A stretch of DNA of 64,000 bases from an uncultured Candidatus Saccharibacteria bacterium. GTDB lineage: Bacteria; Patescibacteriota; Minisyncoccia; Phycocordibacterales; PALSA-1337. Shown piece after piece: positions 4,838-61,456 of this stretch. The number at the start of each line of letters is the position of its first letter. Position 1 is the stretch's first letter. A model generated the notes under the pieces. It did not search any database. It had not been told where the DNA came from and saw only the letters and a list, made by a program, of their open reading frames with translations. The stretch covers positions 19,413 through 83,412 of the forward strand of contig CAYQFS010000001.1 in NCBI GenBank assembly GCA_964416985.1. Direction: 5' to 3'. Position numbers and translations under genes: made by a program.

Positions 4838-5096
4838 GTTTGTTTGTTTTATTATATTAAATACTTATTGTTATTATTAGTTCTGTGGATATGGGGGTAA
4901 GTTCTTTTTGTCTTTATTCTCAGGCCTCTTTTGGAATTTGTTGTTGTGAATAACTTTTTAAAACTTTTAATAACTTTTTACCTAAGCAGCTCTTTTTAAA
5001 TTTTATCCCAAGTTTTCCTAAACCCACCAACAGCTTGTTCCCAGACTTTTCCCTCTAATCTCAGCAACTTTTCAACAGTTTTATCCACAGAACTTA
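4838..5096. promoter_or_regulatory. oriC-like DnaA-box cluster and AT-rich stretch between dnaA and dnaN
   Basis: Perfect TTATCCACA at 5081-5089; 8/9 boxes at 4884-4892 (rc ATATCCACA) and 4945-4953 (rc TTATTCACA); 7/9 at 5003-5011; AT-rich 4838-4880. Confidence 0.6.
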
Positions 5097-6443
5097 CTAC
5101 AACAACGCTCTAATCTGCGCAATTTCTTCCATTAAGATTGGATTTGTTTTTAAATCCTCCTTAACCTTCTCGCATGAATGAATAACTGTTGTGTGGTCTC
5201 GACCACCCATCTTGTCTCCTATTGATGGGAATGAAACACTTAAATCTTCTCGGAGGAGGTACATAATAACCTGGCGAGGTTTAACCACCTCTTTCTTTCG
5301 GGTCTTATCGTAAACACTTTCTTCATCAATGTTGTAAAATTCAGAAACAACCTTGATGACGTCTTTGATTGAGATGTTTTTCTTTGGTTTTGTGTTGTTT
5401 TTAACCAAGTTTTTGACTTCAAGGAGTGAAAGAGGACGATTCTTGAGTTGTGTTTGACAAACAACAGCATTGACTACCCCTTCAAGGTCACGAACATTCC
5501 CTTCTATATTTGTAGCTAGAAACTCGAGGACATCAGGAGCAATGATAATCCCACTGCTAAGACTTTTTGTTTTGAGTATTGTTATGCGGGATTCAAAGTC
5601 TGGAGCGGGTATTTCAATGATCATTCCCGCATTAAAACGAGACTTAAGCCTGTCTTCAAGACCAGGGATGAAATTTGGGTGTTTATCAGAGGAAAATATA
5701 AGCTGACGATTGCTTTCATGAAATGTGTTGAAAAGGTGGAAAAACTCCTCCTGGAACTTGTCTTTCCCAGAGAAAAACTGAACATCATCCATAATAATAA
5801 CATCATACTTTCGGTACTTTTCTTTGAATTGCTGAGCTTTTTGGTTTTGGAGAGCGTTTAGATACTCCGAACCAAACCTTTCTGATGTTAAATAGAAGAT
5901 TTTTTTATCAACATGTTCTTTTTTGATATGATTCCCTATTGCTTGAATAAGGTGGGTTTTCCCATGCCCAGTATTTCCATAGATGAAAAGAGGGTTATAA
6001 GCAGTTCCTGGGGTTTTGACAACAGTTTTTGATGCCGCATGAGCAAGTTCATTGAAAGGACCGACTACAAATGAATCAAAAACATAACGAGGGTTTAAAT
6101 TGTCATCTTTGTTTACATAATAGTCCTGCAACGGCATAGAAATTGTAGGTGTTGCCTGTATTTTCTTTCTTTCTTCAACTTTTCGCTTGTCGGCTTCTTT
6201 TAAAATAACATACTCGAGAGCTCGTACCTGCTCATTCATCTGTCGTAGCGTCTTTAGAATGACATTGTGGAACTTCTTGTAGAGCCAATCTCGAGTAAAG
6301 GGATTGGGAACACCAAGGTATATGATCCCTTCGTCGTGTTTTATAATACAGGTACCATTGAACCATGTTGAAAAATTTGCTTGTGATACTGCAAGTTCTA
6401 TTTCAACGAGAGCACTTTCCCATAATTTATTCAAATCATTCAT
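5097..6443 (-). CDS. dnaA: chromosomal replication initiator DnaA
   Basis: 448 aa; Walker [14 protein letters not shown]+ domain, C-terminal DNA-binding domain; flanked by DnaA boxes. Confidence 0.95.
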
Positions 6444-6565
6444 TTATGTTGAGAGAAAGTAAAAAATAATACTCTTAGTATATACTTGTTTAAAAAATAG
6501 CAAACTTGTGGAAAGTTTATAAATATGTTGATAACTTGTGGAGAATAGTATATAGTGGATGAACT

Positions 6566-6700
6566 ATGTCATTTACATACCAGCCAAAGAAAAGAAAGAG
6601 AGCAAAGTCCCATGGTTTTCTCGTCCGAACAAAAACAAGCGGAGGGCGCAATGTTATCAAACGCCGCCGAGCTAAAGGTCGCAAGAAGATCTCTGTTTAA
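6566..6700 (+). CDS. rpmH: 50S ribosomal protein L34
   Basis: 44 aa [44 protein letters not shown]; missed by ORF track (below length cutoff; overlapping 62-aa ORF is another frame). Confidence 0.9.
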
Positions 6701-6702
6701 TC

Positions 6703-7789: not shown

Positions 7790-9055
7790 TTATTGATTGA
7801 GATCAAGTGACCAAAGACTAAGGTCATTTTTGTTTATAAAGTAGAGGAAGTTTTCTTTTGGATCAAGAGTGAGGTTTGTCGCATCGATCAGTCTGTCAGA
7901 GAGGTTTAAAAGGTTTGCAAGGAGATGCACCTCCCCTGTCGCTGTATCGAGATGCCAGAGTTGGTCAACAAATGATACACTCCCTTCATACCAATCATCG
8001 GGGTAGAGACTATTTGGAATTTCTGTTGGTACGGCACAGTAGACTTCGCTCTTGTGAACTGTACTCCAGACGCATTTTTCGGGGAGAGTTTTAAATATCA
8101 CTTCTTTTGTGGTTTTATTTTTGATGTTGTAAAGTGATGTTTTAAAGGTTCGAGACGCACTTGACGAGAAGAGTACCTGCTTTCCATCAGTACTTGTTTT
8201 TGTTGTAAGACCGAGGATTCCACCAAAGATTTTTGTCATTGTTCCGTTTTTAACATCTACAATATATGCGTATCCAGATGAGACTGCGGACGCCTTTGTT
8301 GTAATGATAATAGTATTTTCTTCAGGCCAGGAAACCTGAACCTGTGTGAGAGGTGTATCAAGTACTTTTGTTCTTTTTGATTCATCAAATTGAGAAATAT
8401 AGCCTATACCCCTTCCATTCTCAATATTGAAAGTGAAAACCCGATCCCCTTTTGGTGAAACAGTCACCTCTCTTATGTCTGCTGATAGGAATTTCCCTCT
8501 GATTTCGTATGGAGTTTTATTTACATCGATAGTGCTACTTGCCGTAACAATAACTTTTCGTACTTCTCCATAGAAATTCACCACGGTGTCTGTCCCCTCC
8601 TTTATGTAACGAAGGATAACAGCAGAAAGATTTTTGTTCCAGTAACTCTCATAAATTCGTGGAAGAGTAGTGTTTGAAAGTTTGATGATTGAAGCTTCAT
8701 CAGCACGCGACTCGTAGATGTGTCCTGCTCCACGATCGACGTAACGGATAAGAGTTGTGCTCGCGGTTGTGCTTGCTGACATTCCACCAACCGGAGTAGC
8801 GCTAATAAGTCTTAGAACAGGAAGTTTCTGGACCTCTGTTGGTGGTTGAGAAGCTGTCTCTGTGGTTGTTGAGACATAGTTGGTTGTGTTTGATGGGGGT
8901 GTGACACTACTCCTGTTGAATGGATTAAAGCCACCCGGATTCTCCTCTGTTTCAGTGAATGGTACGGGATTTCCAAGATACGCAAGCCAATAGTACGATC
9001 CCCCGAGGAAGAGAAGGATGAGAAACACTATTAAAAAGAGAAGTTTTTTGGTCAT
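7790..9055 (-). CDS. membrane-anchored hypothetical protein, beta-rich (last gene of T4SS-like operon)
   Basis: N-terminal TM MTKKLLFLIVFLILLFLGG; Ser/Thr-rich linker; long beta-rich C-terminal region; no recognisable catalytic motif. Confidence 0.5.
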   Translation of the reverse strand: MTKKLLFLIVFLILLFLGGSYYWLAYLGNPVPFTETEENPGGFNPFNRSSVTPPSNTTNYVSTTTETASQPPTEVQKLPVLRLISATPVGGMSASTTASTTLIRYVDRGAGHIYESRADEASIIKLSNTTLPRIYESYWNKNLSAVILRYIKEGTDTVVNFYGEVRKVIVTASSTIDVNKTPYEIRGKFLSADIREVTVSPKGDRVFTFNIENGRGIGYISQFDESKRTKVLDTPLTQVQVSWPEENTIIITTKASAVSSGYAYIVDVKNGTMTKIFGGILGLTTKTSTDGKQVLFSSSASRTFKTSLYNIKNKTTKEVIFKTLPEKCVWSTVHKSEVYCAVPTEIPNSLYPDDWYEGSVSFVDQLWHLDTATGEVHLLANLLNLSDRLIDATNLTLDPKENFLYFINKNDLSLWSLDLNQ

Positions 9056-10192
9056 TTATTTTGAAGTTTGAGATGGATTAAGTACCTTTTTGATCATGTC
9101 AACTCTTTTTGCCTTGAGTTCTTCATATTCCTTGAGTAATACAGGGTCGCTTGTATGAAAATTTTCGGGTACTATCTCTGGCTTTGAGTAGACATCCAAA
9201 CTATACTGAAGTCGGTCCCTGTATTGTTGTTTTGTCTTGCTATCTGCTGTTTGGTAGAGGAAGATTTCATGCATAATATCTTCCTGTTCTTTTGTCTGTT
9301 CGACATAATATTCCACCCTACCCTCTAGTTTTTTGGCACCCTCAAGGTCACCGTCATTTTTTAGTTGCTCGACATACCCCCCAGGACCAAGATATTTTTC
9401 TTTAATGAGGCTCAATCCGCCTTGTATTTTCTCGTTTACTTCAGGTTTTAAAGTAGCATCCTTTCCACTAAACGTTGCTGTGTAGTTACTTGCAGTGTTG
9501 GTGTAGTCAAGAATAGTAGAAAAACCGTTGTTTCCAATTCCCTTAGCCGTTGTACGTAGAATTTCTGCATCTCTCGACTTGTAATCTAGTTTAAGTGCAG
9601 CAAGCCTACGTTCATCCTCAGGACTCAAACCACTGGAATTTTTGAGTTTTTCCAATGCATCTATTGATAGCTTAGCCTCATCATTTTTTGACTGCAATTC
9701 TTTTATATTCTTAATATCCTCCATATTAAGAATTTTTATTTCATTTGCAAAACGATTTTGAAAAGCAGTTACATCACTTGTCTTTATCTCAACAGGATCT
9801 ATTCTTGAATTTATCTGCACAAGTCGAGGATCGATCGTCAGGAGAATAAGATATGAAACAAGAGCACCAAGAAGACCGATAATTGCATTCGTGATCCTGC
9901 TTTTACCATCACTTTTTCCAAAAGGAGATTCACTCGTCATGTATTCAAAACCACCCCAGATTATCATAACTATTGCGAGGAAGACAGCCAAAGCAATTGA
10001 GAATTTAAAGACATATTCGATATAGGTGTCAAAGCTTATACAAGTAAGTGTATTTCCACTGAGGCATTGTTTATCCTGGGTAATGCCATTAATATTCGGG
10101 AGAGGTTCGAGAAGAGTGTAGTTGTTCTGAGCATGCACTACCTGTACTGTAAAGATGAGAGCTATTATTATGTAGGGGAATATTTTTTTCAT
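9056..10192 (-). CDS. pilin-like (VirB2/TrbC topology) protein with C-terminal coiled coil
   Basis: Signal peptide, then two hydrophobic helices separated by a short loop (FKFSIALAVFLAIVMIIWGG ... AIIGLLGALVSYLILLTI), then ~250 aa charged coiled coil. Confidence 0.45.
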   Translation of the reverse strand: MKKIFPYIIIALIFTVQVVHAQNNYTLLEPLPNINGITQDKQCLSGNTLTCISFDTYIEYVFKFSIALAVFLAIVMIIWGGFEYMTSESPFGKSDGKSRITNAIIGLLGALVSYLILLTIDPRLVQINSRIDPVEIKTSDVTAFQNRFANEIKILNMEDIKNIKELQSKNDEAKLSIDALEKLKNSSGLSPEDERRLAALKLDYKSRDAEILRTTAKGIGNNGFSTILDYTNTASNYTATFSGKDATLKPEVNEKIQGGLSLIKEKYLGPGGYVEQLKNDGDLEGAKKLEGRVEYYVEQTKEQEDIMHEIFLYQTADSKTKQQYRDRLQYSLDVYSKPEIVPENFHTSDPVLLKEYEELKAKRVDMIKKVLNPSQTSK

Positions 10193-10194
10193 AA

Positions 10195-11208
10195 TTAAAA
10201 TGTTGTTGATTGTTGTTCAGCCAGCTTTTTATTGAAGAAAAGCGTTACAGAAGCCTGCGCTCCCTGAAGGATCTTATCCTGATTTCGTATATCGAGAGAA
10301 AGAAGAGAGCTTCCTTCGGCATCTTCTTTTGTTCTTAAGGTGATACTCTGATTTGTAGAAATATCTGGTTGCTCGAGGTTGTTGATACTCCATGTGTATG
10401 TCAGGGGGCTTTTTCCTCCGACAGAAGAGAAGAAATATGGGGCGGCGAGAATATTAACCTCATCTTTTATGATGGTAAATCGACTGCTGAGGGCTTTATT
10501 GTAGAAGACTCCATACAAAGGATCTTCTTCATAAAGAAGAATCGAAGGATTTCCCGGCTCAAGATTTATAGAAGCCCTTCCCTGCTGGGCGCCATCCTTT
10601 GTTGTGACAATTGCCTCAATGTCGAAGCTCTTCGGAAGAAATTCACTTATCGAAAGTGTTTGTTTCCCAAAACCAGACTGGTCCTGCACAACCTTATCAT
10701 TTACTGTCCATTTGTAAACAAGAGTCTTTGGGTCAATTTCCCTTCCGTTACTTCCTAAAAAGTGAGGAACAGCACTTATTTTTACGAGATTTTGATATGC
10801 GAAGAGAGACTTTCCTTTAAAAAGGGGTGGAGTGTACCCAGAACTTTCCCAGATGAGATCAATATCTGCTGGTTTAAATGTGATAACCTTTCTTACCTCT
10901 TTTCCTTCTGTTGTCATAATAATTGCCGTGACTGTGACATTTTTACCAATCGCTGGAGCTGTTATGTTGATTGAGGTTAGCCCTGTTCCCTGCCCAGTAT
11001 TTTTCCCATCAACTAACCAAACAATAGAAGCCGCGTTGAGGTTCGTATTGTAGCTCTCAACTTTTACCGTGACACTTTGTCCTGCAGATGGGTAGAGTGG
11101 ATCATTTGAAATTTGAACTCCGTCAATTGAATCAGGAATTTGTGCATGAACAAGGAGACTTGTTCCTAGGAAAAGAAAGCAAAGCATGATTTTCAAGCCA
11201 TTTTTCAT
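10195..11208 (-). CDS. secreted beta-rich protein (Ig-like repeats), T4SS-like operon
   Basis: Probable start at internal Met (MKNGLKIMLCFLFLGTSLLVHA signal peptide); repeated ~90-aa beta-rich segments. Confidence 0.45.
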   Translation of the reverse strand: MKNGLKIMLCFLFLGTSLLVHAQIPDSIDGVQISNDPLYPSAGQSVTVKVESYNTNLNAASIVWLVDGKNTGQGTGLTSINITAPAIGKNVTVTAIIMTTEGKEVRKVITFKPADIDLIWESSGYTPPLFKGKSLFAYQNLVKISAVPHFLGSNGREIDPKTLVYKWTVNDKVVQDQSGFGKQTLSISEFLPKSFDIEAIVTTKDGAQQGRASINLEPGNPSILLYEEDPLYGVFYNKALSSRFTIIKDEVNILAAPYFFSSVGGKSPLTYTWSINNLEQPDISTNQSITLRTKEDAEGSSLLSLDIRNQDKILQGAQASVTLFFNKKLAEQQSTTF

Positions 11209-11261
11209 TCCCCCTATTTTACCACGATATTTCATTATTCTGACAAAGAGATTTCCTCAGT

Positions 11262-11687
11262 TTATTCTTGTTTTGCCTGCTCTTCTCGAGAGATTCTCAC
11301 ACCATTTTGGTTTGGAGGCACCCTTTTTACTCGAGGAGGCGTAACACCTGGCTTATTTTTGTTAGGAAAAACCTTTAATCCTGTCTTATCTTCAACCCTA
11401 CTCAATATTAAAATTGCAACCATTGCGGCAATTATTGTAGGCAATTCCTGAACAGCTGGAAAAAGCTCCGCTATAGTTGAGATAATAGCCGGCACAAATC
11501 TTCTCCAATTCACAATTCCTAATCCAAGTTTCCAAAAAACCACACCCATTATCGCCCAAAAGATCCATCCTACAATATCTCCCGCGAGTGGTATGAGTGT
11601 CAGGACATCAGCGATGAAAGCGAGAAAAATCAAAAAGACACCCATTCGTATACTTATCCTGTATTTGGGTTCCTGCTTTTCTTCCAT
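11262..11687 (-). CDS. small polytopic membrane protein
   Basis: 141 aa, 3-4 predicted TM helices, follows VirB4-like gene. Confidence 0.45.
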   Translation of the reverse strand: MEEKQEPKYRISIRMGVFLIFLAFIADVLTLIPLAGDIVGWIFWAIMGVVFWKLGLGIVNWRRFVPAIISTIAELFPAVQELPTIIAAMVAILILSRVEDKTGLKVFPNKNKPGVTPPRVKRVPPNQNGVRISREEQAKQE

Positions 11688-11693
11688 ACCCCT

Positions 11694-13523
11694 CTATTTT
11701 ACCATGCTTGCTTGGCCGCTGGTTTCGAGATCTTGTTTTGCCTGCTTGATTGCAAGAACCTGAGCTGGATTTGTGGTGATGATCTGGTCCTCTGTGTATG
11801 ACGCAACAATCTTGAGGGCGACGTGCTTTAGACCGACGAAGAATATTCCCTCCCCAACATCTGACTCGAGAAGAAGATATTTTTCCTCATCAGTGAGGTT
11901 GAATGTTCTCTGGATATTGTCGATCGAAGATGGAGATTGTTTTAGAAGAATTTGAATTGAAGAGTTTGTGATAATCGGCAGTCCATATGGTGACTTGAGG
12001 AAATCGTCAACATCCTGGGTAATTGTTGCAAGACCAAGATAATATTTTCTTCCTCGTTTTGCCAAACCAAGTAGGAATGAAGCCGTATCTTCTGATTTCA
12101 TCATCCACCATGCCTCGTCGATCACGAGCAGTCGTTTCTTGAGCTGTTTTCGGATAGCGTTCCATATATAGTGTGTGACGATATACATTGCCACCGGCTT
12201 GAGCTCGTCTTCCATGTCTCGAAGCGAGAAAACTACGAATTTTTTGTTGATATCGACGTTTGAAGGGCGATTAATGAAGCCTGACCACGTTCCTTTTGTG
12301 TATTTTGTAAGACGTTCCACGAGGGAATCAGCTCCCTGCATCCCGGCAAGTACAAGTTCGAAATCCGAAAGAAGTGGTGGCTCAACATTCCTAAAGTCGG
12401 ATTCGGGAGTGATGTCCTTCAGGGCGTATGTTTCGGTTATAGCTCGGTCAATGATTGCATCTTCTTCCTGTGTAAGTCCTCCAAGCATAATTCGGAAAAG
12501 TCCAACGAGGTTAATGATGTTTGAGCGGAGAATATCAGCTGCACTCTCATCTTCACGGGGGATTGGAAGGTCAAAAGGGTTTATGTGATGCTCTGAGTTG
12601 AGGGAAATGTTGAAGTACTTCCCTCCTGTTGCTTCGGCCATGTATTCATATTCTTTTTCTGGGTCAATGACGATGACATCTGTATCAAACATTAGGGTTC
12701 TAAGAATTTCGAGCTTTGTGCAGTATGATTTTCCGGCTCCGGCCTTTGCAAATGTCACAGAGTTGTAATTTTCGAGCAGGAATCGATCAAAAAGAACAAG
12801 TGAAGAGTTGTGGCGATTGATTCCGTAGAGAATTCCTTTGTCAGACGTAAGATCAAACGAGGTAAATGGGAAAAGTGATGAAAGTGGAGAGGAATTGAGC
12901 TTTGAATGAACTGCTAGTTCGTCATTTGCAATAGGGAGAACGCTTCGGTAGCCACTCTCCTGTTGGAAAAGGGCAGGCTTTAGATACACAAGCTTTGATT
13001 CAAGGATTGATTTGATTTCTGACTCAGTCTTGTCGAGCTCGGCGCTTGAGTCACCATATATAGTAATGTAGACGCCAACATCAAATATTTTCTCCTGAGC
13101 TTGCATGAGATTGTCCCGAAGGGCTTCGAGGTCCTGGTAAGCAGTATCGAGCATTGGATCACGGACAAGACCCTTGTCTTCCCTCTGTGAAATTTGACTT
13201 TGAACCTCAGCTACTTTCTTCTGGAAGTGTCGAAGGATCTTTGCGGTGTCTACTGGATGAATGAAAATAGAAATATTAAAAATTTTGTCGAGGTTTACGA
13301 TTGGAGAGAACCAGCTTTCACTCAAAAATCGAGGATATGAGATGACAAAGAAGGTTCGAGCCACCTTTTCTCCGAGGTTCAATTCTTTTGGGCTGATTTT
13401 CAAAGCCGAAGGAGCAATGACATCCTTGAGTTCAAGGACGCCTGCCTCATAAATCTCCTGAGGCATGAGCGATGTCACTGGAGAAACCTCTTTTTTGCCT
13501 AGTAATTTTCCAAAAAATGACAT
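11694..13523 (-). CDS. VirB4/TrbE/CagE-family T4SS ATPase
   Basis: 609 aa; N-terminal DVIAPSALKISPKELNLGEKVARTFFVISYPRFL...GW-like VirB4 motif; Walker A AKAGAGKSY; Walker B LLVIDEAWWMM (DEAW). Confidence 0.85.
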   Translation of the reverse strand: MSFFGKLLGKKEVSPVTSLMPQEIYEAGVLELKDVIAPSALKISPKELNLGEKVARTFFVISYPRFLSESWFSPIVNLDKIFNISIFIHPVDTAKILRHFQKKVAEVQSQISQREDKGLVRDPMLDTAYQDLEALRDNLMQAQEKIFDVGVYITIYGDSSAELDKTESEIKSILESKLVYLKPALFQQESGYRSVLPIANDELAVHSKLNSSPLSSLFPFTSFDLTSDKGILYGINRHNSSLVLFDRFLLENYNSVTFAKAGAGKSYCTKLEILRTLMFDTDVIVIDPEKEYEYMAEATGGKYFNISLNSEHHINPFDLPIPREDESAADILRSNIINLVGLFRIMLGGLTQEEDAIIDRAITETYALKDITPESDFRNVEPPLLSDFELVLAGMQGADSLVERLTKYTKGTWSGFINRPSNVDINKKFVVFSLRDMEDELKPVAMYIVTHYIWNAIRKQLKKRLLVIDEAWWMMKSEDTASFLLGLAKRGRKYYLGLATITQDVDDFLKSPYGLPIITNSSIQILLKQSPSSIDNIQRTFNLTDEEKYLLLESDVGEGIFFVGLKHVALKIVASYTEDQIITTNPAQVLAIKQAKQDLETSGQASMVK

Positions 13524-13524
13524 A

Positions 13525-14157
13525 TTAATTTATTTGAATAGGTTTTTCTGACTCCCCAGGATTAAATATCTTGTAGTACAATTCTACCACCTCCTCCGTA
13601 CCAAGTTCAGCCACCCTCACTCCACAACGCACAAGTCCTTGCTCGACAACCCCCACCCTTTGCTCGAGCTGACTTCTGTACTCGGCAAATTTTTCATTTT
13701 CAATGATTCGGCTCTCGTCTTTTTTATTGACGAGATTGCTAATTGGGTTTTTACTTGCAGTCATTGCTGGAGGAGTATATGGCACAATAATGAAGAAACT
13801 TTTTGTCATGATATTTGAATTCTCGACGAATGTCTTAATGAATTCAATGTATTCCCTTGTCTGAATCTTCATAAGTTCAGTCATTTGTTCTTTGTAACGT
13901 TCCTCAAGAAGGGCTATGTATGGCCGTATATCAAGTCTTTTTGATTGAACAAATATCTGAACAGAAAAATCAAGAGAATTTAGAAAATTTTGGAACTGGT
14001 AGATGATTGAGTTTTGTTCATCGGCAGATTTGAGGGCAAAGTTCAATGAAGAAGCGAGAACAAGAGCCCTCATTGAGCCATCTTTGAGAATAACAATTCC
14101 ATCACGAATTTCCCTTATCGGTACAAAGTCCTGAGTTGTTTTTGAACTTGTTGCCAT
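13525..14157 (-). CDS. T4SS-associated hypothetical protein upstream of VirB4
   Basis: 210 aa soluble; PIREIRDGIVILKDGSMRALVLASSLNFALKSADEQ motif resembles N-terminal region of Gram-positive-type T4SS proteins; 2-nt gap to VirB4. Confidence 0.4.
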   Translation of the reverse strand: MATSSKTTQDFVPIREIRDGIVILKDGSMRALVLASSLNFALKSADEQNSIIYQFQNFLNSLDFSVQIFVQSKRLDIRPYIALLEERYKEQMTELMKIQTREYIEFIKTFVENSNIMTKSFFIIVPYTPPAMTASKNPISNLVNKKDESRIIENEKFAEYRSQLEQRVGVVEQGLVRCGVRVAELGTEEVVELYYKIFNPGESEKPIQIN

Positions 14158-14159
14158 AA

Positions 14160-14585
14160 TTATCTTTGGTTTTTATTTGTGTACATGCTCTCCTTTATGT
14201 CGAGACTCCACGTGAGGTCCTTGAGTTTGCTATCAGAAATCTTTGGGACCATGATTGATGCGTACTGTTTTGCCTCCTGCTCCGGTGTCACCACCTTTTC
14301 TTTTTCCGCTTTCTTCCATATGTAGAGTTTGCTGGAGAAAAAATACTTGAAGGCTGCTTCCATTACAAAAATAAACGGTTTGTTGTTTATTTTGTAGAAT
14401 GCGAGAGCTGCTGACAATGTCATTACAATAACAATTGGTATAAATGACAGCACGATCGAGTCCAAAAGCCTATATACAGCAAATGATAGACCTGCGCCTC
14501 CCGCAAGATAAATGAACTGCTTGAGGGTCAAGGGTCCAAATATCTTGTCTTCAACTTCGATGAACTGTGGGACTTGAAAACGCAT
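14160..14585 (-). CDS. small 2-TM protein (VirB3-like position)
   Basis: 141 aa, two TM helices, encoded immediately upstream of the VirB4 pair as VirB3 homologues are. Confidence 0.35.
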   Translation of the reverse strand: MRFQVPQFIEVEDKIFGPLTLKQFIYLAGGAGLSFAVYRLLDSIVLSFIPIVIVMTLSAALAFYKINNKPFIFVMEAAFKYFFSSKLYIWKKAEKEKVVTPEQEAKQYASIMVPKISDSKLKDLTWSLDIKESMYTNKNQR

Positions 14586-14600
14586 GTGTTCATTATAGCA

Positions 14601-15320
14601 TTATTCAATCGGCTCCCGATAAGGATCCACCGAGGTCTTCCCCGCTGGCTGTACCGGAGGCTTTGGGGAAGTTGGTGCTGGGGGTGTTTGGGGATTTGGT
14701 GGTATTGCAATTGGCCCAGGGCTTTGAGGTTTTGGTGCATTTGGTGCAGCTATTTCATTTGCACTTGAGACTGGATTTGCAAGGAGGTGGTCGACGATAG
14801 AAACCCTTGGTGTTGTTGGTGGATTTTCAATTCCATCAAGTATCTGGGCCTTATTTAGACTTGAATTGTTGTATTGAGGAGAAGTTGAAACAGGTTTATC
14901 CTTAACAATCTCAAAGTTCCCAGCTTTTTCGAGGGGGGTGAGAGGGCGGCTTGGAGGTATAGGCACTGTATTTTGCTCCAAAGTAATTTCTTCCTGTACT
15001 TTTCTAATTGATTCTCGAAGCGGCATAAAAATCTCTTCGTTTATATCTTTAACAATTTTTTCAGAAATTTCCTTGTCAATCTCGAGGTCTCTAGCTACTG
15101 TATCAATAAATTTGACTGATGGTAGTTTTCCTATAAGTACCATTCGGGTATCTACTTCGAGCTGCCCTATTTGGTCAAGGAGTAAATTATAACGCGCACC
15201 AATGCTCTCTAATTTCGAGTATACACTCGAAGATTTTATTGCCTCAAGTATTTCTTTTGGGATTGTTGTTTCGGTTGGTTTCATTTTTTTATTTTGTCCA
15301 TCTATCTCTATTTCGACCAT
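14601..15320 (-). CDS. proline-rich hypothetical protein
   Basis: 239 aa; C-terminus PQSPGPIAIPPNPQTPPAPTSPKPPVQP low-complexity. Confidence 0.45.
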   Translation of the reverse strand: MVEIEIDGQNKKMKPTETTIPKEILEAIKSSSVYSKLESIGARYNLLLDQIGQLEVDTRMVLIGKLPSVKFIDTVARDLEIDKEISEKIVKDINEEIFMPLRESIRKVQEEITLEQNTVPIPPSRPLTPLEKAGNFEIVKDKPVSTSPQYNNSSLNKAQILDGIENPPTTPRVSIVDHLLANPVSSANEIAAPNAPKPQSPGPIAIPPNPQTPPAPTSPKPPVQPAGKTSVDPYREPIE

Positions 15321-17232
15321 CGTTCATATATCCGTAAGCCTTGTGCTCTGTCGTCGGAGGTAGGTTGCTGATGCGGTTACCAATAGCCCTTCTGGTTGGT
15401 GCGTCAATCAGGTCTTCCATTTCTTTGAGTTGTGCCGGTGTCATGTAATCGATAACATCATTATTCTGAAGGTGGGTTGGATCAACCTTCGACAATTCCT
15501 TACCCGAAAGATTCTTCATATGCTTCTCGATGACTGTCGGTTGTCCAGAACTGAATACTAGGGATAGTCCTTCCTTTCTCGCTGTTTTAAACTTTTCCTT
15601 ATCTATTTCTGAGAGAGCATCGCCGTCAACTAAGCCTTCTGCTTGCTTAGAAGAAAGCGTAGCAGCAAATTGCGTGTTCGTAAGAGTTTTTAGAGGAACA
15701 TCCTCGAGTTCTTTCTTGGTCATTTTTCCTACAGCATCATAATAAGTCTTGAGTTGCTCAGGTGTAGTAGGTAAGTTATTGAGAATTGGTTTAAGGGCCT
15801 CTGTTCTTGATCGTTCTCTCTGTACTCCTGAAATGACTCTCGCGCGATCCTTATCCTCCCTCTCAACATCACCAAAACTCTGTTTGCCACCATATTTTGA
15901 TTTTTCGACACTCGTTAACCCTCCTCTTACTGCTTGGCTAATGCCTAGGTTTCTTAACACAGTTGTAGCAGCTCTTCCCGTTTTGCTTCCTTGTGCGGCT
16001 GCAGCCATATTGTCGAACCCTTTTCCTGCTAGTTTACCAAGTCGTCCAGCAGTATTTCTTCCAACCACTCCCCCTACCTTACCCCTCACCCAATCCTTTG
16101 CTACGTTTGCCATTCCTGCTCCGTGGCCCCCGAGCTGAAGTGCGGCAACAAGAGGGACATTTATAAAGACAAATGCAATAATGAATTGAAAAATAAGTCC
16201 TGCATCAGCAACGACCACCGCACCAATTGTTGAACCAGCCTTTGCTGCTGCAAGTTGTGCAGTGTCGAGAGCGTCAAAGAATCCTCCATTGCTTAGGAAT
16301 TTGAGAGCCACATACATGAAGAAAAGGTACGCAGGCATGAAAACAAGTTGGGGCACAAAATAATCCATGAACTTGCTCGTCATTTTTTGGTCAACTTTTG
16401 GGAAGATCATCCCTACAAAATACAGTGGAGAGAATCCCATGATGAGAAGGAGAATGACAATACGAATAATGAAGGCGAACCCTGCAAACAAGAAGCTAAG
16501 AGCTGCTGTGAGCATGAGTATCGAGCCTCCAATAGTTGAGACTGCGACTAGAAATGTTCCATTTGCAGTAGCGAGGATTCCTCCCTTGTTATATACCTTA
16601 GGTATTTTGAGGCTTTGCTGAAAGACGTCAGAGATACCTCCTTGTTTGAATGAATTTGTTAAAACCGTACCAATATCCCCTTTGGATAGATCTACATTTT
16701 GAGAATTAGGAGCGATTGCCCTGTAGAATTGGAGAGAAACGAGATTCGAAGCGTCAATAAGAATACGAGTGAAGAAAAGGCTAAAGTTAATGAGTATTCC
16801 AGCGAAAAATATCTTAACGACAAGAGATCCAAATTGAGGACCCTTTGTTCCAAGGATTGTGTTAATTGAGGCATATATGAGAGCAAAGATAATGAAGATG
16901 CTCGAAATGTTTCGTATGACAATCCACGTCTGTTCAATTGCCGGAGTTGCTTCGTAGAGTGCCTTTATATTAAGTGTGAGAACTATCGAAGCGTTAAGGA
17001 TAATTCCGGCAAGAGAAATGGCGTATGACATGAACTGGAGCACCCAGTTTCCGAGTTGGGAGAAAAGACTATCAAAAATTGATATAGTAGCACATTGAGC
17101 AAGACTATCTTGACTGAATATGAGCCACCACGAACAATCAGCTGCCGCTTGGGCAACATGAGGAATACTAGCAACTCCTCCCACCAGGAGGACAAGTGTT
17201 ATCGATAGGATTGTTGCTAATTTTCTGTTCAT
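15289..17232 (-). CDS. polytopic membrane protein, VirB6/TrbL-like
   Basis: 647 aa; signal/TM then >=6 TM helices, Gly-rich segment, ~280-aa hydrophilic C-terminal tail; architecture typical of VirB6/TrbL. Confidence 0.5.
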   Translation of the reverse strand: MNRKLATILSITLVLLVGGVASIPHVAQAAADCSWWLIFSQDSLAQCATISIFDSLFSQLGNWVLQFMSYAISLAGIILNASIVLTLNIKALYEATPAIEQTWIVIRNISSIFIIFALIYASINTILGTKGPQFGSLVVKIFFAGILINFSLFFTRILIDASNLVSLQFYRAIAPNSQNVDLSKGDIGTVLTNSFKQGGISDVFQQSLKIPKVYNKGGILATANGTFLVAVSTIGGSILMLTAALSFLFAGFAFIIRIVILLLIMGFSPLYFVGMIFPKVDQKMTSKFMDYFVPQLVFMPAYLFFMYVALKFLSNGGFFDALDTAQLAAAKAGSTIGAVVVADAGLIFQFIIAFVFINVPLVAALQLGGHGAGMANVAKDWVRGKVGGVVGRNTAGRLGKLAGKGFDNMAAAAQGSKTGRAATTVLRNLGISQAVRGGLTSVEKSKYGGKQSFGDVEREDKDRARVISGVQRERSRTEALKPILNNLPTTPEQLKTYYDAVGKMTKKELEDVPLKTLTNTQFAATLSSKQAEGLVDGDALSEIDKEKFKTARKEGLSLVFSSGQPTVIEKHMKNLSGKELSKVDPTHLQNNDVIDYMTPAQLKEMEDLIDAPTRRAIGNRISNLPPTTEHKAYGYMNDGRNRDRWTK

Positions 17233-17238
17233 GTAATG

Positions 17239-18846
17239 CTAATAGTAGAAAGTTGAAAACAATGTGCACTGCTGCAGCTTTCTCTGGGCATCTGCTTTTG
17301 CGCTATCCATGTCCTCTTTTACTTTATCCAATGCTTTCTGAGATTCTGAAACCTTGAGTGGAGATATAAGCGACTGACTCTGAAGCAATCTGCTATATTT
17401 TTCACTTGGCGCCCGAAGGTCGTTCACTGTTTTTGCAACGGTGGTGCTTGCTTGAATATCTGTAAGAGTCTTGAGTTGTGTAGTAGCATCCGCTGTTTCT
17501 GCAAGGAGGGTGTTTGCAACTGGTGTGATTCTTGTAGCGACTTCTCGAGCAATATCATCGAGTCCAGATTGAGCCATGGCTTTTCGGTATCCATCAGATG
17601 AGAAATCTATCAATTTCTGGTTGTAACATGCTGTCGCTGTGTCGTATGCTTGTTTTGCACTGACAACTATCGCGAGGGCAGCATCTTTATTCTGCTTGTA
17701 TTGTTTTGCGTTATCGATGTTCGTTTGGAGGTTAGGAAGCATTTGCTCAGTTATCTTTCCTGCCCCCTCAGGACTTTCTTGTATTATTTGGTTGATGTAT
17801 GCATTTGAATCTCCAGCACCGCCTCCACTGATTGCCCCAAGTCCTTGAGAAAGAACCTGTGTTACGAGTTGCGCAAAGAGGGCGTTTACAATTTCGTTAA
17901 GTTCATCCGCTAGTTCAAGTTGACGAATCGGACTTCCAAGGTTTGATTCAAGGGCTCCTGCGATAACGGAGCCAGGTGTTTGGACTTCACATTTTTCTTC
18001 TGCCACATAACCTTCCCCCGATCCTTCGTATGATCTTTCTGGTCCATTATATGTTCCTTCTCCGGATCCCTCACTTGGTCTTTCTTCTGAATTTTCATTG
18101 CCGGTTTTGGTACATTTTCTCCACGAGAGAAAACCTTTTCCTTGATTTAGCTCCTCTCTTCTCTGGATCTGGACGTTTGCTACTCGAAGAGAGAGTTCTG
18201 TATCAGCTTGGATCCATGCCCCGTACACATTGTTTTGTGGTTCTGTGGTCATAGAAACGAAAGCAGGCCAGCCACCCTGTCTGAAATCTCCAGCAGTGAA
18301 GCCGTTAATACTTGAATTTTTAACAGCATTTGTAGTGTTTGTAATGATAGTTCCTAAAGTACAAGCATACCTTTGTCCACTATTCGGATGATATTTAAAA
18401 GCGAGCGCAATTCGGAGATCGATACTGAATGGAGAACAGAGATTTGTGAGTGGTCCTCCGTACTGAGAGAGAAAACGCCCAGTTTCCTGGTCTGCAAGAT
18501 CGAGAAAGAAGGAGCTTGGATTTGTTACAAATGAAGGACTTCCTTGAAAGCCAGAATTGATCCAGTTGACAACACTCTGGGTTATTTGTCGGACGATTTG
18601 TTTTGCAAACATTCCCGCAATTCCGTCGAGGACAAATTCCTTGAGATTGTCAGAATACGCATTAAATGCGAGCTGTGTCGTGTTTGTTGCGATGATGATT
18701 TGCTGAACCAAAGACGCTCCGACTTCTACAACTGCATATTGTGCTTCGACTTTATGTGGTATTGAGAGTGACAATGAAAGGAGTGACCCGATCAGGAGTG
18801 TTACTACAAGAAGCGAACTAATTATTTTTGTAATCTTTTGTTTCAT
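17239..18846 (-). CDS. secreted hypothetical protein
   Basis: 535 aa; N-terminal signal/TM MKQKITKIISSLLVVTLLIGSLLSL; no catalytic motif recognised. Confidence 0.45.
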   Translation of the reverse strand: MKQKITKIISSLLVVTLLIGSLLSLSLSIPHKVEAQYAVVEVGASLVQQIIIATNTTQLAFNAYSDNLKEFVLDGIAGMFAKQIVRQITQSVVNWINSGFQGSPSFVTNPSSFFLDLADQETGRFLSQYGGPLTNLCSPFSIDLRIALAFKYHPNSGQRYACTLGTIITNTTNAVKNSSINGFTAGDFRQGGWPAFVSMTTEPQNNVYGAWIQADTELSLRVANVQIQRREELNQGKGFLSWRKCTKTGNENSEERPSEGSGEGTYNGPERSYEGSGEGYVAEEKCEVQTPGSVIAGALESNLGSPIRQLELADELNEIVNALFAQLVTQVLSQGLGAISGGGAGDSNAYINQIIQESPEGAGKITEQMLPNLQTNIDNAKQYKQNKDAALAIVVSAKQAYDTATACYNQKLIDFSSDGYRKAMAQSGLDDIAREVATRITPVANTLLAETADATTQLKTLTDIQASTTVAKTVNDLRAPSEKYSRLLQSQSLISPLKVSESQKALDKVKEDMDSAKADAQRKLQQCTLFSTFYY

Positions 18847-18847
18847 A

Positions 18848-19825
18848 TTATTGGTGTGTCATAAAAAATATACCCCCTTCATTTTGTTGATATTGAATTC
18901 CCATCAAACTGATTTTTTGCCTGACAGATAGGAAAGCGTCAAAAAGTTTTCGAGCCCCTTCGAGGTATTGGCTTGTTGCTTGCAATCCAAGGACCGGGTC
19001 AGCTCCCGATTTTCTAAATGATTGAGCCACAAACAAGGAGATCTTCATCCCATTTATTAAATCGAGGTGAGTCTGAGAAAGTGACGCAGGGGTTTCAATT
19101 GTAGTAAGTCCGTTCACAATATTTTGGTATGTGGTGATGATGGGGTCGAGTTCTTTGAGAATATCCAAATCTTCTTTCTCGAGGGCTTCCTTAGCAATTA
19201 CAGCCTCATTTCTTCCATTTATTGGATACTTGAGAAAAAGATTTCCAACATCATTCCCATATTGTCTGATAGATGTGGCGCTATCGTCTTTGCGAGTTTT
19301 TACTGAACTTAAGTTGTAAAGTTTTGGTGCACTAAGGACAATTCCACTTTTTGTGACAACCTGCTGCGCTACTTCTATCTGGCTCTGAGGATCCTGGGAA
19401 AGACCCGCTTGGCGGAGTTCCATGTAGCGGGCAAAAAAGTCTCTAGCAAGAAGGTCGGTCGGAGTGAGGTCTTCTGTGGGAGTTTTTGAAGATGAAGTTT
19501 CACTCATTTTGTCCTTGGGACCTTTGACGAGAGGGTTTCTTCCGGTAGTACTTTCCTTTCCGTCGGATGTGCCGTCACCATCAGTATCTGCTTTGTGTGG
19601 ATCAGTACCGAGGAGAACTTCTTCCCAGTCTCTGAGACCATCAGAATCGCTGTCGACGCTCTGTAGGTCGGGAGAAAGAGCTGGGGTTGAGGTCGAAACG
19701 AGGGGTGCTTCGTAGACTATGTTTTCATCCTGTTTGTTGCGATACTCTGCGACAAAAAATGCTCCACTGATAAGGGCAGCTGCGGCAAGAATCAAAACGA
19801 TATTTTTGAGGCTTGGGGACTTCAT
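18848..19825 (-). CDS. secreted protein with thrombospondin-type-3-like Ca-binding repeats (first gene of operon)
   Basis: N-terminal TM; DSDSDGLRDWEEVLLGTDPHKADTDGDGTSDGKE (DxDxDG repeats). Confidence 0.5.
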   Translation of the reverse strand: MKSPSLKNIVLILAAAALISGAFFVAEYRNKQDENIVYEAPLVSTSTPALSPDLQSVDSDSDGLRDWEEVLLGTDPHKADTDGDGTSDGKESTTGRNPLVKGPKDKMSETSSSKTPTEDLTPTDLLARDFFARYMELRQAGLSQDPQSQIEVAQQVVTKSGIVLSAPKLYNLSSVKTRKDDSATSIRQYGNDVGNLFLKYPINGRNEAVIAKEALEKEDLDILKELDPIITTYQNIVNGLTTIETPASLSQTHLDLINGMKISLFVAQSFRKSGADPVLGLQATSQYLEGARKLFDAFLSVRQKISLMGIQYQQNEGGIFFMTHQ

Positions 19826-24091: not shown

Positions 24092-25621
24092 TCAAAAATT
24101 CCTCTGTCGGTACTGGAGCGCTTCGAGAACATGATTTTTTTGAACTTCACTTTTTCCTTCGAGGTCGGCAATTGTCCTCGCAAGTTTCATCGTCCTATGA
24201 AATGCCCTTCCCGAAAGACCAAGCCTTTTTGCAGAAGATGAAAGCAGTTCTTTTATATCTGCCTTGAGCTCAATACATTTTTCCATATCAGAGACGTTCA
24301 TTTCCCCATTTACTTTTTTGTGCCGTACTTTCTTTTCAATAAATCTTCGAAGCTGTCTCTTGCGTGCATTTTCCACTCTCCTTCTGATACTTGCTGAAGT
24401 TTCATTTATCCTTGATGAGCCGGCGAGTTTTTCATATTCGACCTTTGAAACCGAAACCCACAGATCAATGCGGTCAATGATAGGTCCTGAAATTCTTTTT
24501 TTGTAGAGGATAATGTCTCTCTCTGTACATGTACAACCTTTTTCTTTTCCATATCCACATGGGCAGGGATTCATTGAAGCAACGAGAATGCACTGCGCAG
24601 GAAATGTGAGAGAACCCCGAGCCCGTGAAATGGTTACGACCCCGTCTTCGAGAGGTTGTCTCAAAGCATCTATAACAGCCCTATCAAATTCTGCAAATTC
24701 ATCGAGAAAAAGTACTCCACGATGAGCCAGGGTAATCTCCCCTGGTCTTGGAAATGGTCCTCCACCAACAAGCGATGGATACGAAGATGTGTGATGAGGA
24801 GAGCGGAATGGAGGATGTGTAATGAAAGGCGCGTCGAGTGTCCGTGCCATAGAGTGTATCCCAGTCACCTCGAGAATTTCTTCATGATCCAGTGCGGGAA
24901 GTATCGTTCTAAAAGCTTTTGCGAGCATTGTCTTCCCTGTTCCTGGAGGTCCATAGAGGGCAATGTTGTGTCCTCCAGCAGCAGCGATCTCGAGACCTCT
25001 TTTTGCAGCCTCCTGACCCTGGATGAGAGAAAAATCAGTATCAAATGACTGTGGTTCATATATCACATTGGTTTGAGGTTGTGGCTTGATTATTCCACCA
25101 TGTCTTCCGATAAGGTGTCCAATTATTTCATCAAGATTTTTTATTCCAAAAACTTTTATTCCCTTCACAAGAGCGGCCTCTTCGGCATTTTCATGAGGAA
25201 CATAGACCTCCCCGAATCCATTTTTACGCGCACCTCTTACAAGAGGTAGGACACCACTCACTCTTCTTAAGTTTCCTTCAAGAGAGAGTTCTCCAAGAAA
25301 AAGCTTTTTCTCCGAATCAAAATCAATATCCCCACTCGCCAGAAGATATCCGAGGGCCATCCCAAGGTCGAATGAAGTCCCCTCTTTTCTTACATCGGCA
25401 GGTGCAAGTGATATTACGACTTTTTGATTCTTTTGCTTCGGCGAAGTATATCCGCTATTTTTTATTCCAGCAGAAATTCTGTCGCGAGCTTCATCGACAG
25501 CTTTGTCTCCTAAGCCGACAACGGAAAAATGATGAAGTCCGTTTGAAAGGTCTATTTCGATAGTAATAATGTGTGTTGTTAGTCCAGAAAGCTGGGCACT
25601 ATATAATTTTGCTACACTCAT
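24092..25621 (-). CDS. comM: YifB/ComM Mg-chelatase-like AAA+ ATPase (competence protein ComM)
   Basis: 509 aa; Walker A GPPGTGKTM; Lon-like N-domain; C-terminal ChlI domain. Confidence 0.9.
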   Translation of the reverse strand: MSVAKLYSAQLSGLTTHIITIEIDLSNGLHHFSVVGLGDKAVDEARDRISAGIKNSGYTSPKQKNQKVVISLAPADVRKEGTSFDLGMALGYLLASGDIDFDSEKKLFLGELSLEGNLRRVSGVLPLVRGARKNGFGEVYVPHENAEEAALVKGIKVFGIKNLDEIIGHLIGRHGGIIKPQPQTNVIYEPQSFDTDFSLIQGQEAAKRGLEIAAAGGHNIALYGPPGTGKTMLAKAFRTILPALDHEEILEVTGIHSMARTLDAPFITHPPFRSPHHTSSYPSLVGGGPFPRPGEITLAHRGVLFLDEFAEFDRAVIDALRQPLEDGVVTISRARGSLTFPAQCILVASMNPCPCGYGKEKGCTCTERDIILYKKRISGPIIDRIDLWVSVSKVEYEKLAGSSRINETSASIRRRVENARKRQLRRFIEKKVRHKKVNGEMNVSDMEKCIELKADIKELLSSSAKRLGLSGRAFHRTMKLARTIADLEGKSEVQKNHVLEALQYRQRNF

Positions 25622-25692
25622 CCCGAAACCATATCACATCGAGATAAAATCCTGATAAAAAATAAATAAAGTTTTGATAAAATTGTGATCAT
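25622..25692 (-). promoter_or_regulatory. conserved 5' element of comM (shared with comEC)
   Basis: rc of 25622-25690 matches 61457-61520 over ~60 nt, including identical spacing to the ATG. Confidence 0.5.
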
Positions 25693-25730
25693 GTCAAGTA
25701 AAAATCCTCTTTTATGAGGATTTTTAAGGG

Positions 25731-26096
25731 TTATTTCATATGCTTGATTGAGGTTCGAGCTGCCGGATTTGCATCGAGGCGCTCTTTTTCGATTGGTTCT
25801 CCTGAAATTTCACAGATTCCGTAGGTTCCCTTTTCAATTTTTGCCAGAGCATCGTTTACATCTTTGAGTTGTTTTTCGAGTTGTTGGAGTATTCCCTCGT
25901 TATCCTCCAATTGCTCCATCTTGTCGGCTAGCTCGTTTTCGTCAGCAGAATCAACCTCGACATCTTTTGAGCTCGCTTCCCAGCCCAAGGGATTCTTGGG
26001 ATTTGATGACTGTCCAACCGTTGTAAGTTCGTCTTCGAGTACCTTCTTTTCCTTCTCGAGCTTCTTCTTGAAATATTCGGTATCTTTTTTATTCAT
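25731..26096 (-). CDS. DksA/TraR-family C4 zinc-finger protein
   Basis: 121 aa; coiled-coil N-terminus; C-terminal C4 finger GTYGICEISGEPIEKERLDANPAARTSIKH. Confidence 0.7.
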   Translation of the reverse strand: MNKKDTEYFKKKLEKEKKVLEDELTTVGQSSNPKNPLGWEASSKDVEVDSADENELADKMEQLEDNEGILQQLEKQLKDVNDALAKIEKGTYGICEISGEPIEKERLDANPAARTSIKHMK

Positions 26097-26105
26097 GCCC
26101 CCATT

Positions 26106-27320
26106 TTACCTGACATATGTCTCTTTTTCAACCCTTCCCAAGAGTCCTTTGAGAGCACTTTCTGTGGTGGTGAATACAATGGTATCTTTGTCGATAAATG
26201 AGTAGAGGAAGAGGGTCTCATCTTGCCTACCGATGAATTCTCTTACATCCCTATTTTGTATTTGTTTGTCGATGAATTTTCCTCGAATGCTAAAATATGA
26301 TGCAATTGAACTTGAAGCCGTAGTCTCCCCTGCACGGGCCTTTTCTTTAAAATTGAGAATATCAGCAAGTTCATCAGGCATCGATGCTTCCCATGCAAGC
26401 ATTCCAGCAAAGGCGTTTTGGAAAAAGTCTGTCGTGAAAATGAGGAAAGGAGTTTTCACTCCGCTGTCCTCGTTGTATGTTCCGAGCATCCATTGATCGG
26501 TGAGGGATCGTGCTAGAGTACTCGGCATTTCGATTGCCGCTTTTTTAATGAATGAAGATCCTGTCACTCGCACTGAAGTCTCGCCACTTTTTTCTCCAAG
26601 CACAAGTTCGATGACCTGCGCAGATCCGCTCGTATTTTTATTGAGCTCAGCGGTAATTCGTGGAACAAATTGACCTTCAGCAATACCATCAACCATGAAA
26701 ACATTCTGTTTGTCATAAGGAATGATGCTCTGAATTGCTACTGGTTTTGTAGCCACTTGTTCGGGCAATGCAAAAGCGCTTTGCTTGTAGAGATAGTATC
26801 CTCCGTATGCTCCTCCAGCGATGAGAATAAGGCTTACAAGAGCTAGAATTATTTTTTTACCACCCCCCTTTGGTCGTGCCTCCTCTTCGTCAACAATGGT
26901 TTTGTCGGGAATTCCTGCGGCCTCAGCTTTTTGCATCTGCTCAACTTTTTTTGTCTCGGCAATGACCATGCTTGCTGTCGAAGTTTTGTGCTGCGACATG
27001 AGCTCGGCAATGTCCCCTTCATAGGTTCGAATTGGTTTTTGAAGATAATTTTTGAATGCACTCGAGTCATTGAGGGCTTCGGTTGGTGAAGGTGGAATGG
27101 GCGCTTGCGACGCAGGCATTCCTGGCTGATTTTTTGTTGGAGGAACTATTTTTCCAATCGTTGCTCCGAGAGCGTCCTGAAGAGCTGTCTGAGGTTTTGC
27201 GATTGGTGCTGGAGGTGGAGGCACAGGAACACCGCCCTGAGAAGAAGACTTTGTGGTCACCTCGATGTCTGGCTTATATTCCTGATCCGCGAGAATGTTC
27301 AGTGGTTTTTCACCATTCAT
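26106..27320 (-). CDS. membrane-anchored hypothetical protein (Pro-rich N-terminus, single TM)
   Basis: 404 aa; PVPPPPAPIAKP...; TM ILALVSLILIAGGAYGGYYLY. Confidence 0.45.
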   Translation of the reverse strand: MNGEKPLNILADQEYKPDIEVTTKSSSQGGVPVPPPPAPIAKPQTALQDALGATIGKIVPPTKNQPGMPASQAPIPPSPTEALNDSSAFKNYLQKPIRTYEGDIAELMSQHKTSTASMVIAETKKVEQMQKAEAAGIPDKTIVDEEEARPKGGGKKIILALVSLILIAGGAYGGYYLYKQSAFALPEQVATKPVAIQSIIPYDKQNVFMVDGIAEGQFVPRITAELNKNTSGSAQVIELVLGEKSGETSVRVTGSSFIKKAAIEMPSTLARSLTDQWMLGTYNEDSGVKTPFLIFTTDFFQNAFAGMLAWEASMPDELADILNFKEKARAGETTASSSIASYFSIRGKFIDKQIQNRDVREFIGRQDETLFLYSFIDKDTIVFTTTESALKGLLGRVEKETYVR

Positions 27321-49200: not shown

Positions 49201-49262
49201 TCAAAGATTCATGCCCGCTTATACACAATAATATATGCATATCCCCATGATATAATTGTCCC

Positions 49263-56139: not shown

Positions 56140-56199
56140 GATGTATGAAGCAGGTAGTACGAGTAGAGCGCCCGTGACCCCCGTGGTATACTTTTTGGT

Positions 56200-60955: not shown

Positions 60956-60958
60956 TGC

Positions 60959-61453: not shown

Positions 61454-61456
61454 CGA

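Follow-up and report, generated by a model that had tools for sequence, protein, structure and literature searches.

A phased heptamer array ahead of comM and comEC as a probable regulon-defining promoter module for DNA uptake in Paceibacterota

The DNA-uptake genes comM and comEC, located on a 64-kb stretch of DNA (hereafter the window), are each headed by the same row of short repeats directly upstream of an extended -10 element, and this arrangement very probably represents a promoter module that defines a regulon. Directly observed are how the module is built, that it recurs at such genes in many genomes, that it keeps a fixed distance to the -10 element and the start codon, and that a regulator gene is linked to a copy of it. 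An activator-dependent extended -10 promoter, together with a phased array bound by a regulator of the OmpR/PhoB family, provides a joint explanation that we consider reasonably probable, and we infer with moderate confidence that the module activates its genes.

The window contains exactly two copies of the shared 46-nt core, ATTTTATCAAAACTTTATTTATTTTTTATCAGGATTTTATCTCGAT, one at 25638-25683 (-) and the other at 61456-61501 (+), and the two are identical. A sequence-only reading had pointed to such a core, and the exact search recovers both copies, the ranges given earlier being within 1-2 nt. No third copy with up to three mismatches was found in the window, none of 100 shuffles gave any, and heptamer-cluster searches and two weight matrices revealed no further sites in the window. 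With a weight matrix built from other genomes only, both window sites reached ~72.5 bits of a maximum of 81, against a window mean of -115 (sd 21); shifted registers of the two sites aside, no other position exceeded -22. The 16 nt after the core, GTGATATGGTTTCGGG and CTGTTATGGTTCTGAG respectively, each run up to an ATG (25621-25619; 61518-61520) and follow the pattern (G/C)TG(A/T)TATGGTT(TC/CT)G(G/A)G. The distance from core to start codon is the same for both genes, and the aligned copies thus agree with the earlier claim of a similar 14 nt ending at the ATG at equal distance from both starts. The alignment of the two copies also places CTTGACA 5' of each core, separated from it by 8 variable nt.

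Both downstream genes were verified by Pfam as ComM and ComEC, in keeping with their initial description as DNA-uptake genes. Copy 1 drives comM (24092-25621, -), which encodes a YifB/Mg-chelatase-like ATPase of 509 aa with Mg_chelatase, ChlI and Mg_chelatase_C domains (E=3e-85) and an N-terminus that aligns from residue 1 with module-bearing orthologs. Copy 2 drives the N-terminal part of comEC (61518-62867, +; 449 aa), which contains the DUF4131 and Competence domains (E=3e-49 for Competence, Pfam) and no MBL domain. The comEC gene is split in this genome: the channel part at 61518-62867 (+) and the MBL nuclease part at 63502-63999 (+) are separate genes, the latter being an ORF homologous to the C-terminal MBL half of ComEC that runs past the window end. 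A gene for Fe/Mn superoxide dismutase (62830-63417, -) lies between the halves on the opposite strand, and this order of comEC-N, superoxide dismutase and MBL genes is kept in the relatives L133, L135, L137 and L138. The MBL gene carries a full module of its own in relatives; 5' of the window ORF there is a weak resemblance, ATTTTAT...TCGATaTGcTAGATT followed by 6 nt and ATG, which lacks a site-level score.

The organisation of the core is regular. Heptamers occupy positions 2-8, 24-30 and 35-41 (TTTTATC) and positions 13-19 (CTTTATT, degenerate) in exact 11-bp phase; the unit consensus is A-TTTTATC-nnn, and the core can be described as a row of ATTTTATC repeats. In the comM copy (-), which would extend from -62 to -17, the four units lie at 25682-25676 (TTTTATC), 25671-25665 (CTTTATT), 25660-25654 (TTTTATC) and 25649-25643 (TTTTATC); in the comEC copy (+), they lie at 61457-61463, 61468-61474 (CTTTATT), 61479-61485 and 61490-61496. 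TCGAT follows the fourth unit in both copies. The extended -10 element comes next, TGaTATGGT at 25628-25636 (-) before TTCGGG (25627-25622) and the ATG at 25621-25619, and TGtTATGGT at 61503-61511 (+) before TCTGAG and the ATG at 61518. Nine nucleotides separate the end of the last heptamer from the -10 hexamer in both window copies. A promoter of the TTGACA-N16-18-TATAAT type is absent from the comM and comEC upstream regions, which contain no -35-like hexamer paired with the -10; the place of the missing -35 is covered by the proximal units of the array. Spanning about -62 to -22, the units would all face the same side of the helix.

The 5' flanks of the two copies differ in their surroundings. 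The CTTGACA of the comM copy (25692-25698, -) has no partner -10 at 16-18 nt, and upstream of it a terminator-like hairpin (25699-25726, -) follows a DksA/TraR-like gene (25731-26096) and shields the comM promoter from upstream transcription. The CTTGACA of the comEC copy (61441-61447, +) is located within the 3' end of the RNase H gene, the stop codon of which (61451-61453) lies ~3 nt before the core. This CTTGACA is kept in the 86%-identical relative L133, and the sequence may form a distal part of the module.

The transcription start was inferred from the positional regularity of the -10 element and the start codon. An upstream gap of 40 nt or more is present at 37 window genes; in 10 of them, TAnnnT stands 6-7 nt ahead of the start codon, and TGn precedes it in 8 of these 10; only 3 occurrences of TGnTAnnnT are found elsewhere in the same 37 upstream regions. 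Most promoters of this genome are extended -10 elements of the form TGnTATAAT or TGnTATACT located 6-7 nt ahead of the start; examples include pilB, tpiA, the RNase H gene and the gene of the CCA-adding enzyme, and extended -10 elements of this kind can be seen at 49240-49265, 60935-60961, 56175-56202 and 26097-26125. A Shine-Dalgarno-like core is present at only 3 of 64 window genes, and leaderless translation seems, from these counts, to be the rule in this genome. Six nucleotides separate the extended -10 from the ATG, a spacing shared with many other window genes, so the comM and comEC mRNAs are probably leaderless, and the 46-nt core (~-62 to -17) would therefore lie upstream of the transcription start.

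This position bears directly on how the shared sequence should be read. It had originally been described as a promoter or leader dedicated to a competence regulon, possibly an operator or a cis-regulatory RNA. The promoter part of this description is supported, as the module recurs at DNA-uptake genes in relatives, and the RNA part is not: a riboswitch, leader or other cis-regulatory RNA was rejected on folding, on Rfam and on its location upstream of the inferred start. The predicted folds of the two copies are no more stable than those of shuffled sequences (z = +0.6 and +1.1), and no Rfam family matches the core at the gathering threshold. Transcription from the conserved upstream TTGACA, which would turn the sequence into a 5' leader or cis-regulatory RNA, is extremely improbable, even though CTTGACA is kept 8 nt before the core in both copies and leaders do exist at some other members of the regulon. 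An acceptable -10 is missing at 16-18 nt past the TTGACA, which in the comEC copy is RNase H coding sequence and which has no fixed place in other genomes; the extended -10 has the six-nt spacing to the ATG seen at other leaderless genes, and the leaders of leadered members begin past the module rather than inside it.

The recurrence of the module was determined by scanning 185,579 species-representative genomes with the pattern TTTTATC-N15-TTTTATC-N4-TTTTATC, and the counts that follow refer to the matches listed, which were selected for the motif. Among them, 46 instances were identified in at least 12 metagenome-assembled genomes (MAGs) of Paceibacterota, nine of which have 2-10 copies each and three of which have one; some of the module-bearing MAGs are labelled Saccharibacteria or 'uncultured bacterium'. 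The remaining matches were junk 11-bp tandem repeats from unrelated phyla. A metagenome scan with a pattern adapted to the window variant recovered only a different, DATDZD-like species, and the genome-wide search for copies proposed at the outset was carried out on relatives. Nearly half of the listed instances (22 of 46) lie directly 5' of the ComEC N-part (7), ComM (5), the ComEC MBL half (4), an operon of a 380-aa T2SSE ATPase (ComGA/PilB-like) followed by PilC (3), or prepilins (3). The other listed instances precede LCAT-like secreted proteins of 870-950 aa (4), rpsF-ssb-rpsR (1), PemK-like genes (2), PBECR-type nucleases (3), a recurrent small family of about 130 aa (3), and genes without a family assignment (about 11). 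Further copies had been predicted upstream of pilin genes, dprA, comEA and comF; the pilin genes were recovered, with three instances, and the other three genes were not seen among the recovered loci. The module is not a generic scattered repeat, a concern raised at the outset, since its copies stand at orthologous DNA-uptake genes across related genomes. The regulon, of which the listed instances give a minimum membership, is broader than competence: it also takes in a small transcript, LCAT-like secreted hydrolases and toxin-like RNases of the PBECR and PemK types.

Several loci from the scan have additional features. In L015, L017, L031 and L080, the first gene after the module encodes a secreted protein of 870-950 aa with a lipase-esterase domain of the LCAT/DUF676 type, and these proteins may be host-directed hydrolases. 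In L037 (2604-5374), the module heads a gene for a coiled-coil protein followed by the pentose-phosphate genes rpiB, rpe and transketolase, which, if co-transcribed, would fit the use of imported nucleosides. Stand-alone PemK-like genes with a module are present in L069 and L106.

Additionally, a motif-blind sample was assembled from ComEC homologs found by protein search, the loci being taken regardless of the motif (n=4). All four orthologs (86, 73, 70 and 61% identity) have the module or a recognisable variant heading the comEC transcription unit. The core is kept in L133 (86%), where one heptamer is TTTTATT and a GTG start lies 6 nt past TAGAGT. In L135 (73%) and L137 (70%), a module with ATTCATC or TTTCATC variants precedes a PemK-like gene between RNase H and comEC, and L137 carries a second, identical copy before a small gene that precedes the MBL gene. 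In L138 (61%), the array has diverged: CTTTATC and TTCTTAAGAAC alternate, and TATGGT follows, with a leaderless start. The PemK/MazF-like gene between module and comEC is located at 9516-9914 in L135, 9508-9900 in L137 and 9480-9956 in L138, and is absent from the comEC head in the window and L133.

The geometry of the promoter was examined in an alignment of 46 copies, the two window copies included. TAnnnT occurs 9-10 nt past the last heptamer in 39 of the 46 (9 nt in 36 and 10 nt in 3), and 25 of these 39 have TG before the -10 hexamer. The -10 element is followed either by a start codon at 21 nt from the last heptamer, the commonest distance (12 cases of 46) and the one found in the window, or by a leader opening with an ATTAT...ATAAT palindrome. 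The -10 hexamers of module promoters are skewed to TATGNT (18 of 39), and those of window housekeeping genes are TATAAT or TATACT. The second unit often departs from the heptamer form; in some genomes its place is taken by the dyad TTCTTGAACAAG or TTCTTAAGAA, where a second protein could bind.

The leadered members L015, L017, L031, L037, L053, L057, L076, L080 and L117 have a palindrome of the ATTATTA..TAATAAT type at about +1, with a variable loop length, which may be a 5' RNA hairpin or a second operator. In L105 (3914-4050; 7611-7720), leaders of ~100-140 nt follow the module at the comEC-N and MBL genes, and both contain GTGCAGGTTGTGGAGGTTTCGTTGCGCAGG, which may be a conserved leader element.

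The near-perfect identity of copies over 40-60 bp within a genome is unusual when compared with ordinary, degenerate regulator sites, and it counts against the main explanation. Together with the sharp boundaries of the shared sequence, the 46/46 identity would suit a promoter cassette that was duplicated recently or is mobile, such as a MITE-like repeat or a gene conversion product, and has no specific regulatory meaning. At the 20 core positions outside the search pattern, identity among copies is 83% inside one genome and 54% across genomes, with flanks at ~30% in both comparisons, and this within-genome homogeneity could be counted in favour of a cassette as well. Such an origin is nevertheless very unlikely. 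The position of the module is ancestral, because the same genes carry it in genomes with 54-86% ComEC identity; the module always points toward its gene at a fixed distance, terminal inverted repeats are lacking, and its occurrence is limited to a functionally coherent gene set. A MITE or other mobile repeat was rejected for the lack of terminal inverted repeats and for the constant promoter orientation at orthologous genes across genomes. A DNA uptake sequence (DUS/USS) was also rejected, as the 64 kb contain just the 2 promoter copies instead of a motif at high genome-wide density. The identity of the window copies would instead be explained by a lineage-specific constraint acting on the whole array, and the homogeneity within genomes points to co-evolution with the binder, or to gene conversion, and not to recent insertion.

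A candidate for this binder emerged from a tblastn search with E. coli PhoB against all fetched DNA, which found one full-length regulator, in L026, with its stop codon ~80 nt ahead of a module copy. The protein is typical of the OmpR family, with DrrD, PhoP, BasR, RpaA and KdpE as its best PDB matches and many homologs of 55-69% identity in Paceibacterota. A gene of this family stands directly 5' of a module copy in all four genomes examined (L026, L100, L139/L140 and L141/L142; in L100, only the C-terminus of the regulator is within the locus), and the remaining neighbour genes differ among the four loci. The OmpR-family regulator is named as the candidate binder because of this 4/4 linkage of gene and module, which is an association, and the chance that an OmpR/PhoB-family response regulator binds the array is, judged from sequence, about even.

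The module copy after the regulator gene drives a transcript that opens with the hairpin-forming sequence RRTTATGnGTCGACATAAYY (L026 7518-7700; L100 127-260; L139 6745-6900; L141 4735-4900). The hairpin has compensatory stem changes and a conserved loop, and in L026 a terminator-like hairpin lies ~60 nt past it. This transcript, which matches no Rfam family, may be a small RNA.

The 64-kb window itself contains no response-regulator gene detectable by tblastn with E. coli PhoB, and no LytTR or ComK homologs were found by tblastn in the window or the candidate phyla radiation (CPR) loci. Its other features include a long same-strand cluster of membrane and secreted proteins at 7790-19825 (-), with a VirB4-like ATPase at 11694-13523 (Walker motifs, by eye), which looks like a Patescibacteria type IV secretion system. 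At 6444-6702 and 3731-6443, dnaA-dnaN adjoin an AT-rich spacer that is probably the replication origin and contains TTATCAACA/TCCACA boxes, which are unlike the TTTTATC heptamer; DnaA boxes are absent from the shared element.

According to the proposed mechanism, each copy would be the upstream regulatory half of a sigma-70-type extended -10 promoter that gives a leaderless mRNA. Tandem head-to-tail dimers of a phosphorylated OmpR/PhoB-family regulator would occupy the array and recruit RNA polymerase to the weak TATGGT -10. In this way, comM and comEC would be switched on together with the rest of a DNA-uptake-centred regulon, comprising the ComEC MBL half, the pilus ATPase/PilC operon, pilins, ssb, LCAT-like secreted hydrolases and toxin-like RNases.

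The same DNA element might instead serve as an operator array for a repressor or a filament-forming nucleoid-type protein, which would coat -62 to -17 and silence the DNA-uptake genes until released. The array does abut the extended -10 and cover the position of sigma region 4, and an extended -10 can do without a -35, which makes an activator dispensable in principle; housekeeping promoters here are of the same type. Furthermore, the extra palindrome at +1 of leadered members is a possible further operator, and the distal heptamer fits the IHF consensus TATCAAAACTTTA. Repression is still unlikely, as direct repeats phased by 11 bp and ending ~10 bp before the -10 constitute the classical activating geometry of OmpR/PhoB proteins (PMC2275107). 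The TATGNT -10 elements of the regulon are also weaker than the housekeeping TATAAT/TATACT, as is expected if the promoters are activator-dependent. OmpR-family proteins can repress as well, and the repressor account differs from the main explanation mostly in sign.

It is more doubtful still that a dedicated alternative sigma factor, comparable to ComX or SigH, recognises the module and its TATGNT -10, with the proximal heptamer as -35 and the upstream repeats acting like an UP element. The heptamer at -39 to -33 occupies the -35 position, the -10 elements of the regulon are biased to TATGNT, and AGGATTT, between the last two heptamers, resembles the SigH -35 consensus. However, the AGGA spacer varies elsewhere (AGAA, GAAA, ATAA or AAAA), the -10 retains the housekeeping TGnTAnnnT form, four to six phased repeats are foreign to sigma recognition, and there is no cin-box. 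Competence in Firmicutes is sigma-controlled (PMC6560143), which adds some appeal to a dedicated sigma factor.

An activated OmpR/PhoB-type array has precedents among described systems. Regulators of this family bind tandem 11-nt direct-repeat units beside the -35 (PMC2275107; PMC3978041). The module resembles pho boxes and other OmpR/PhoB sites, such as those of E. coli PhoB, Streptomyces and Mycobacterium PhoP, PmrA/BasR and S. pneumoniae CiaR, in its 11-bp units with ~7 conserved and 4 variable positions, in the number of units (two to six), in the proximal unit that replaces the -35 ~10 bp before the -10, and in an array that defines the regulon (PMC2275107, PMC3978041). As in pho-box-like sites, direct repeats of ~7 bp form units of 10-11 bp, at least two in tandem, with a phasing that recurs in the 46 instances from other genomes; the proximal unit lies ~10 bp from the -10, and a convincing -35 is lacking. 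The targets are not those of a classical Pho regulon: pst/pho genes account for none of the 46 downstream genes or operons among the matches listed. Unlike in Pho-box systems, the module stands at DNA-uptake genes, its promoters probably give leaderless mRNAs at a fixed 21 nt, and its copies within a genome are near-identical over 40-60 bp, spacers too. CiaR also controls small RNAs and affects competence, and the module similarly drives a small transcript beside a regulator gene. To our knowledge, no characterised OmpR/PhoB-family site matches the (A)TTTTATC repeat, and the repeat sequence, the target genes and the leaderless output are new with respect to pho-box-type arrays.

Comparison with the named competence boxes, as the sequence-only reading had proposed, gave no match, the K-box, cin-box and CRP-S/Sxy sites all being absent from the shared element. 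An AT-box of the ComK K-box (two AAAA-N5-TTTT AT-boxes) is matched only in the terminator hairpin upstream of comM. The ComX/SigX cin-box TACGAATA has no match with up to one mismatch, the -10 being TGnTATGGT, and the Sxy/TfoX CRP-S dyad (TGCGA-N6-TCGCA) has none with up to two mismatches in an element that is a direct repeat. The 11-bp-phased 7-mers described here thus differ from the AT-boxes of ComK, the -10-type sigma box that is the cin-box, the 22-bp dyad of CRP-S and the 9-mers of ComE with their 21-bp period. What the module has in common with the K-box, cin-box, CRP-S and ComE repeats is that one short promoter motif marks genes of DNA uptake and recombination, which makes the regulon legible in the sequence.

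In Synechococcus elongatus, RpaA is a clock-output global regulator of the OmpR family upstream of pilus and competence expression. RpaA is also among the closer PDB relatives of the Paceibacterota regulator, and we know of no comparable repeat array at RpaA-controlled com promoters. In the literature searched, neither a competence regulator or competence regulation nor this motif was found to be described for CPR bacteria. As in the competence regulon of pneumococcus, lytic or toxin functions are included among the genes that carry the module (PMC6560143).

Natural transformation has been demonstrated in cultivated Patescibacteria, namely Saccharibacteria (PMC10633639). We tentatively propose, as a possibility rather than the expected outcome, that Paceibacterota, CPR bacteria in which hardly any regulators are known, have a two-component 'acquisition' programme, in which one OmpR-family regulator would read genome-specific, co-evolving ATTTTATC arrays of 40-60 bp to control DNA uptake (the ComEC halves, ComM, pilus and SSB), secreted LCAT-like lipases, toxin-like RNases and a small hairpin RNA encoded beside the regulator gene. 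If true, such a programme would couple host attack to the import of host DNA. The module provides a regulon that can be read from sequence for a large uncultivated lineage, and it indicates that DNA uptake there is regulated and not constitutive. It yields a set of co-regulated genes, among them unannotated ones and secreted hydrolases or toxins that may act on hosts, nominates a specific candidate sensor pathway, and adds an independent line of evidence for leaderless, extended -10-driven expression in these genomes, while also offering a natural regulated promoter for CPR genetics.
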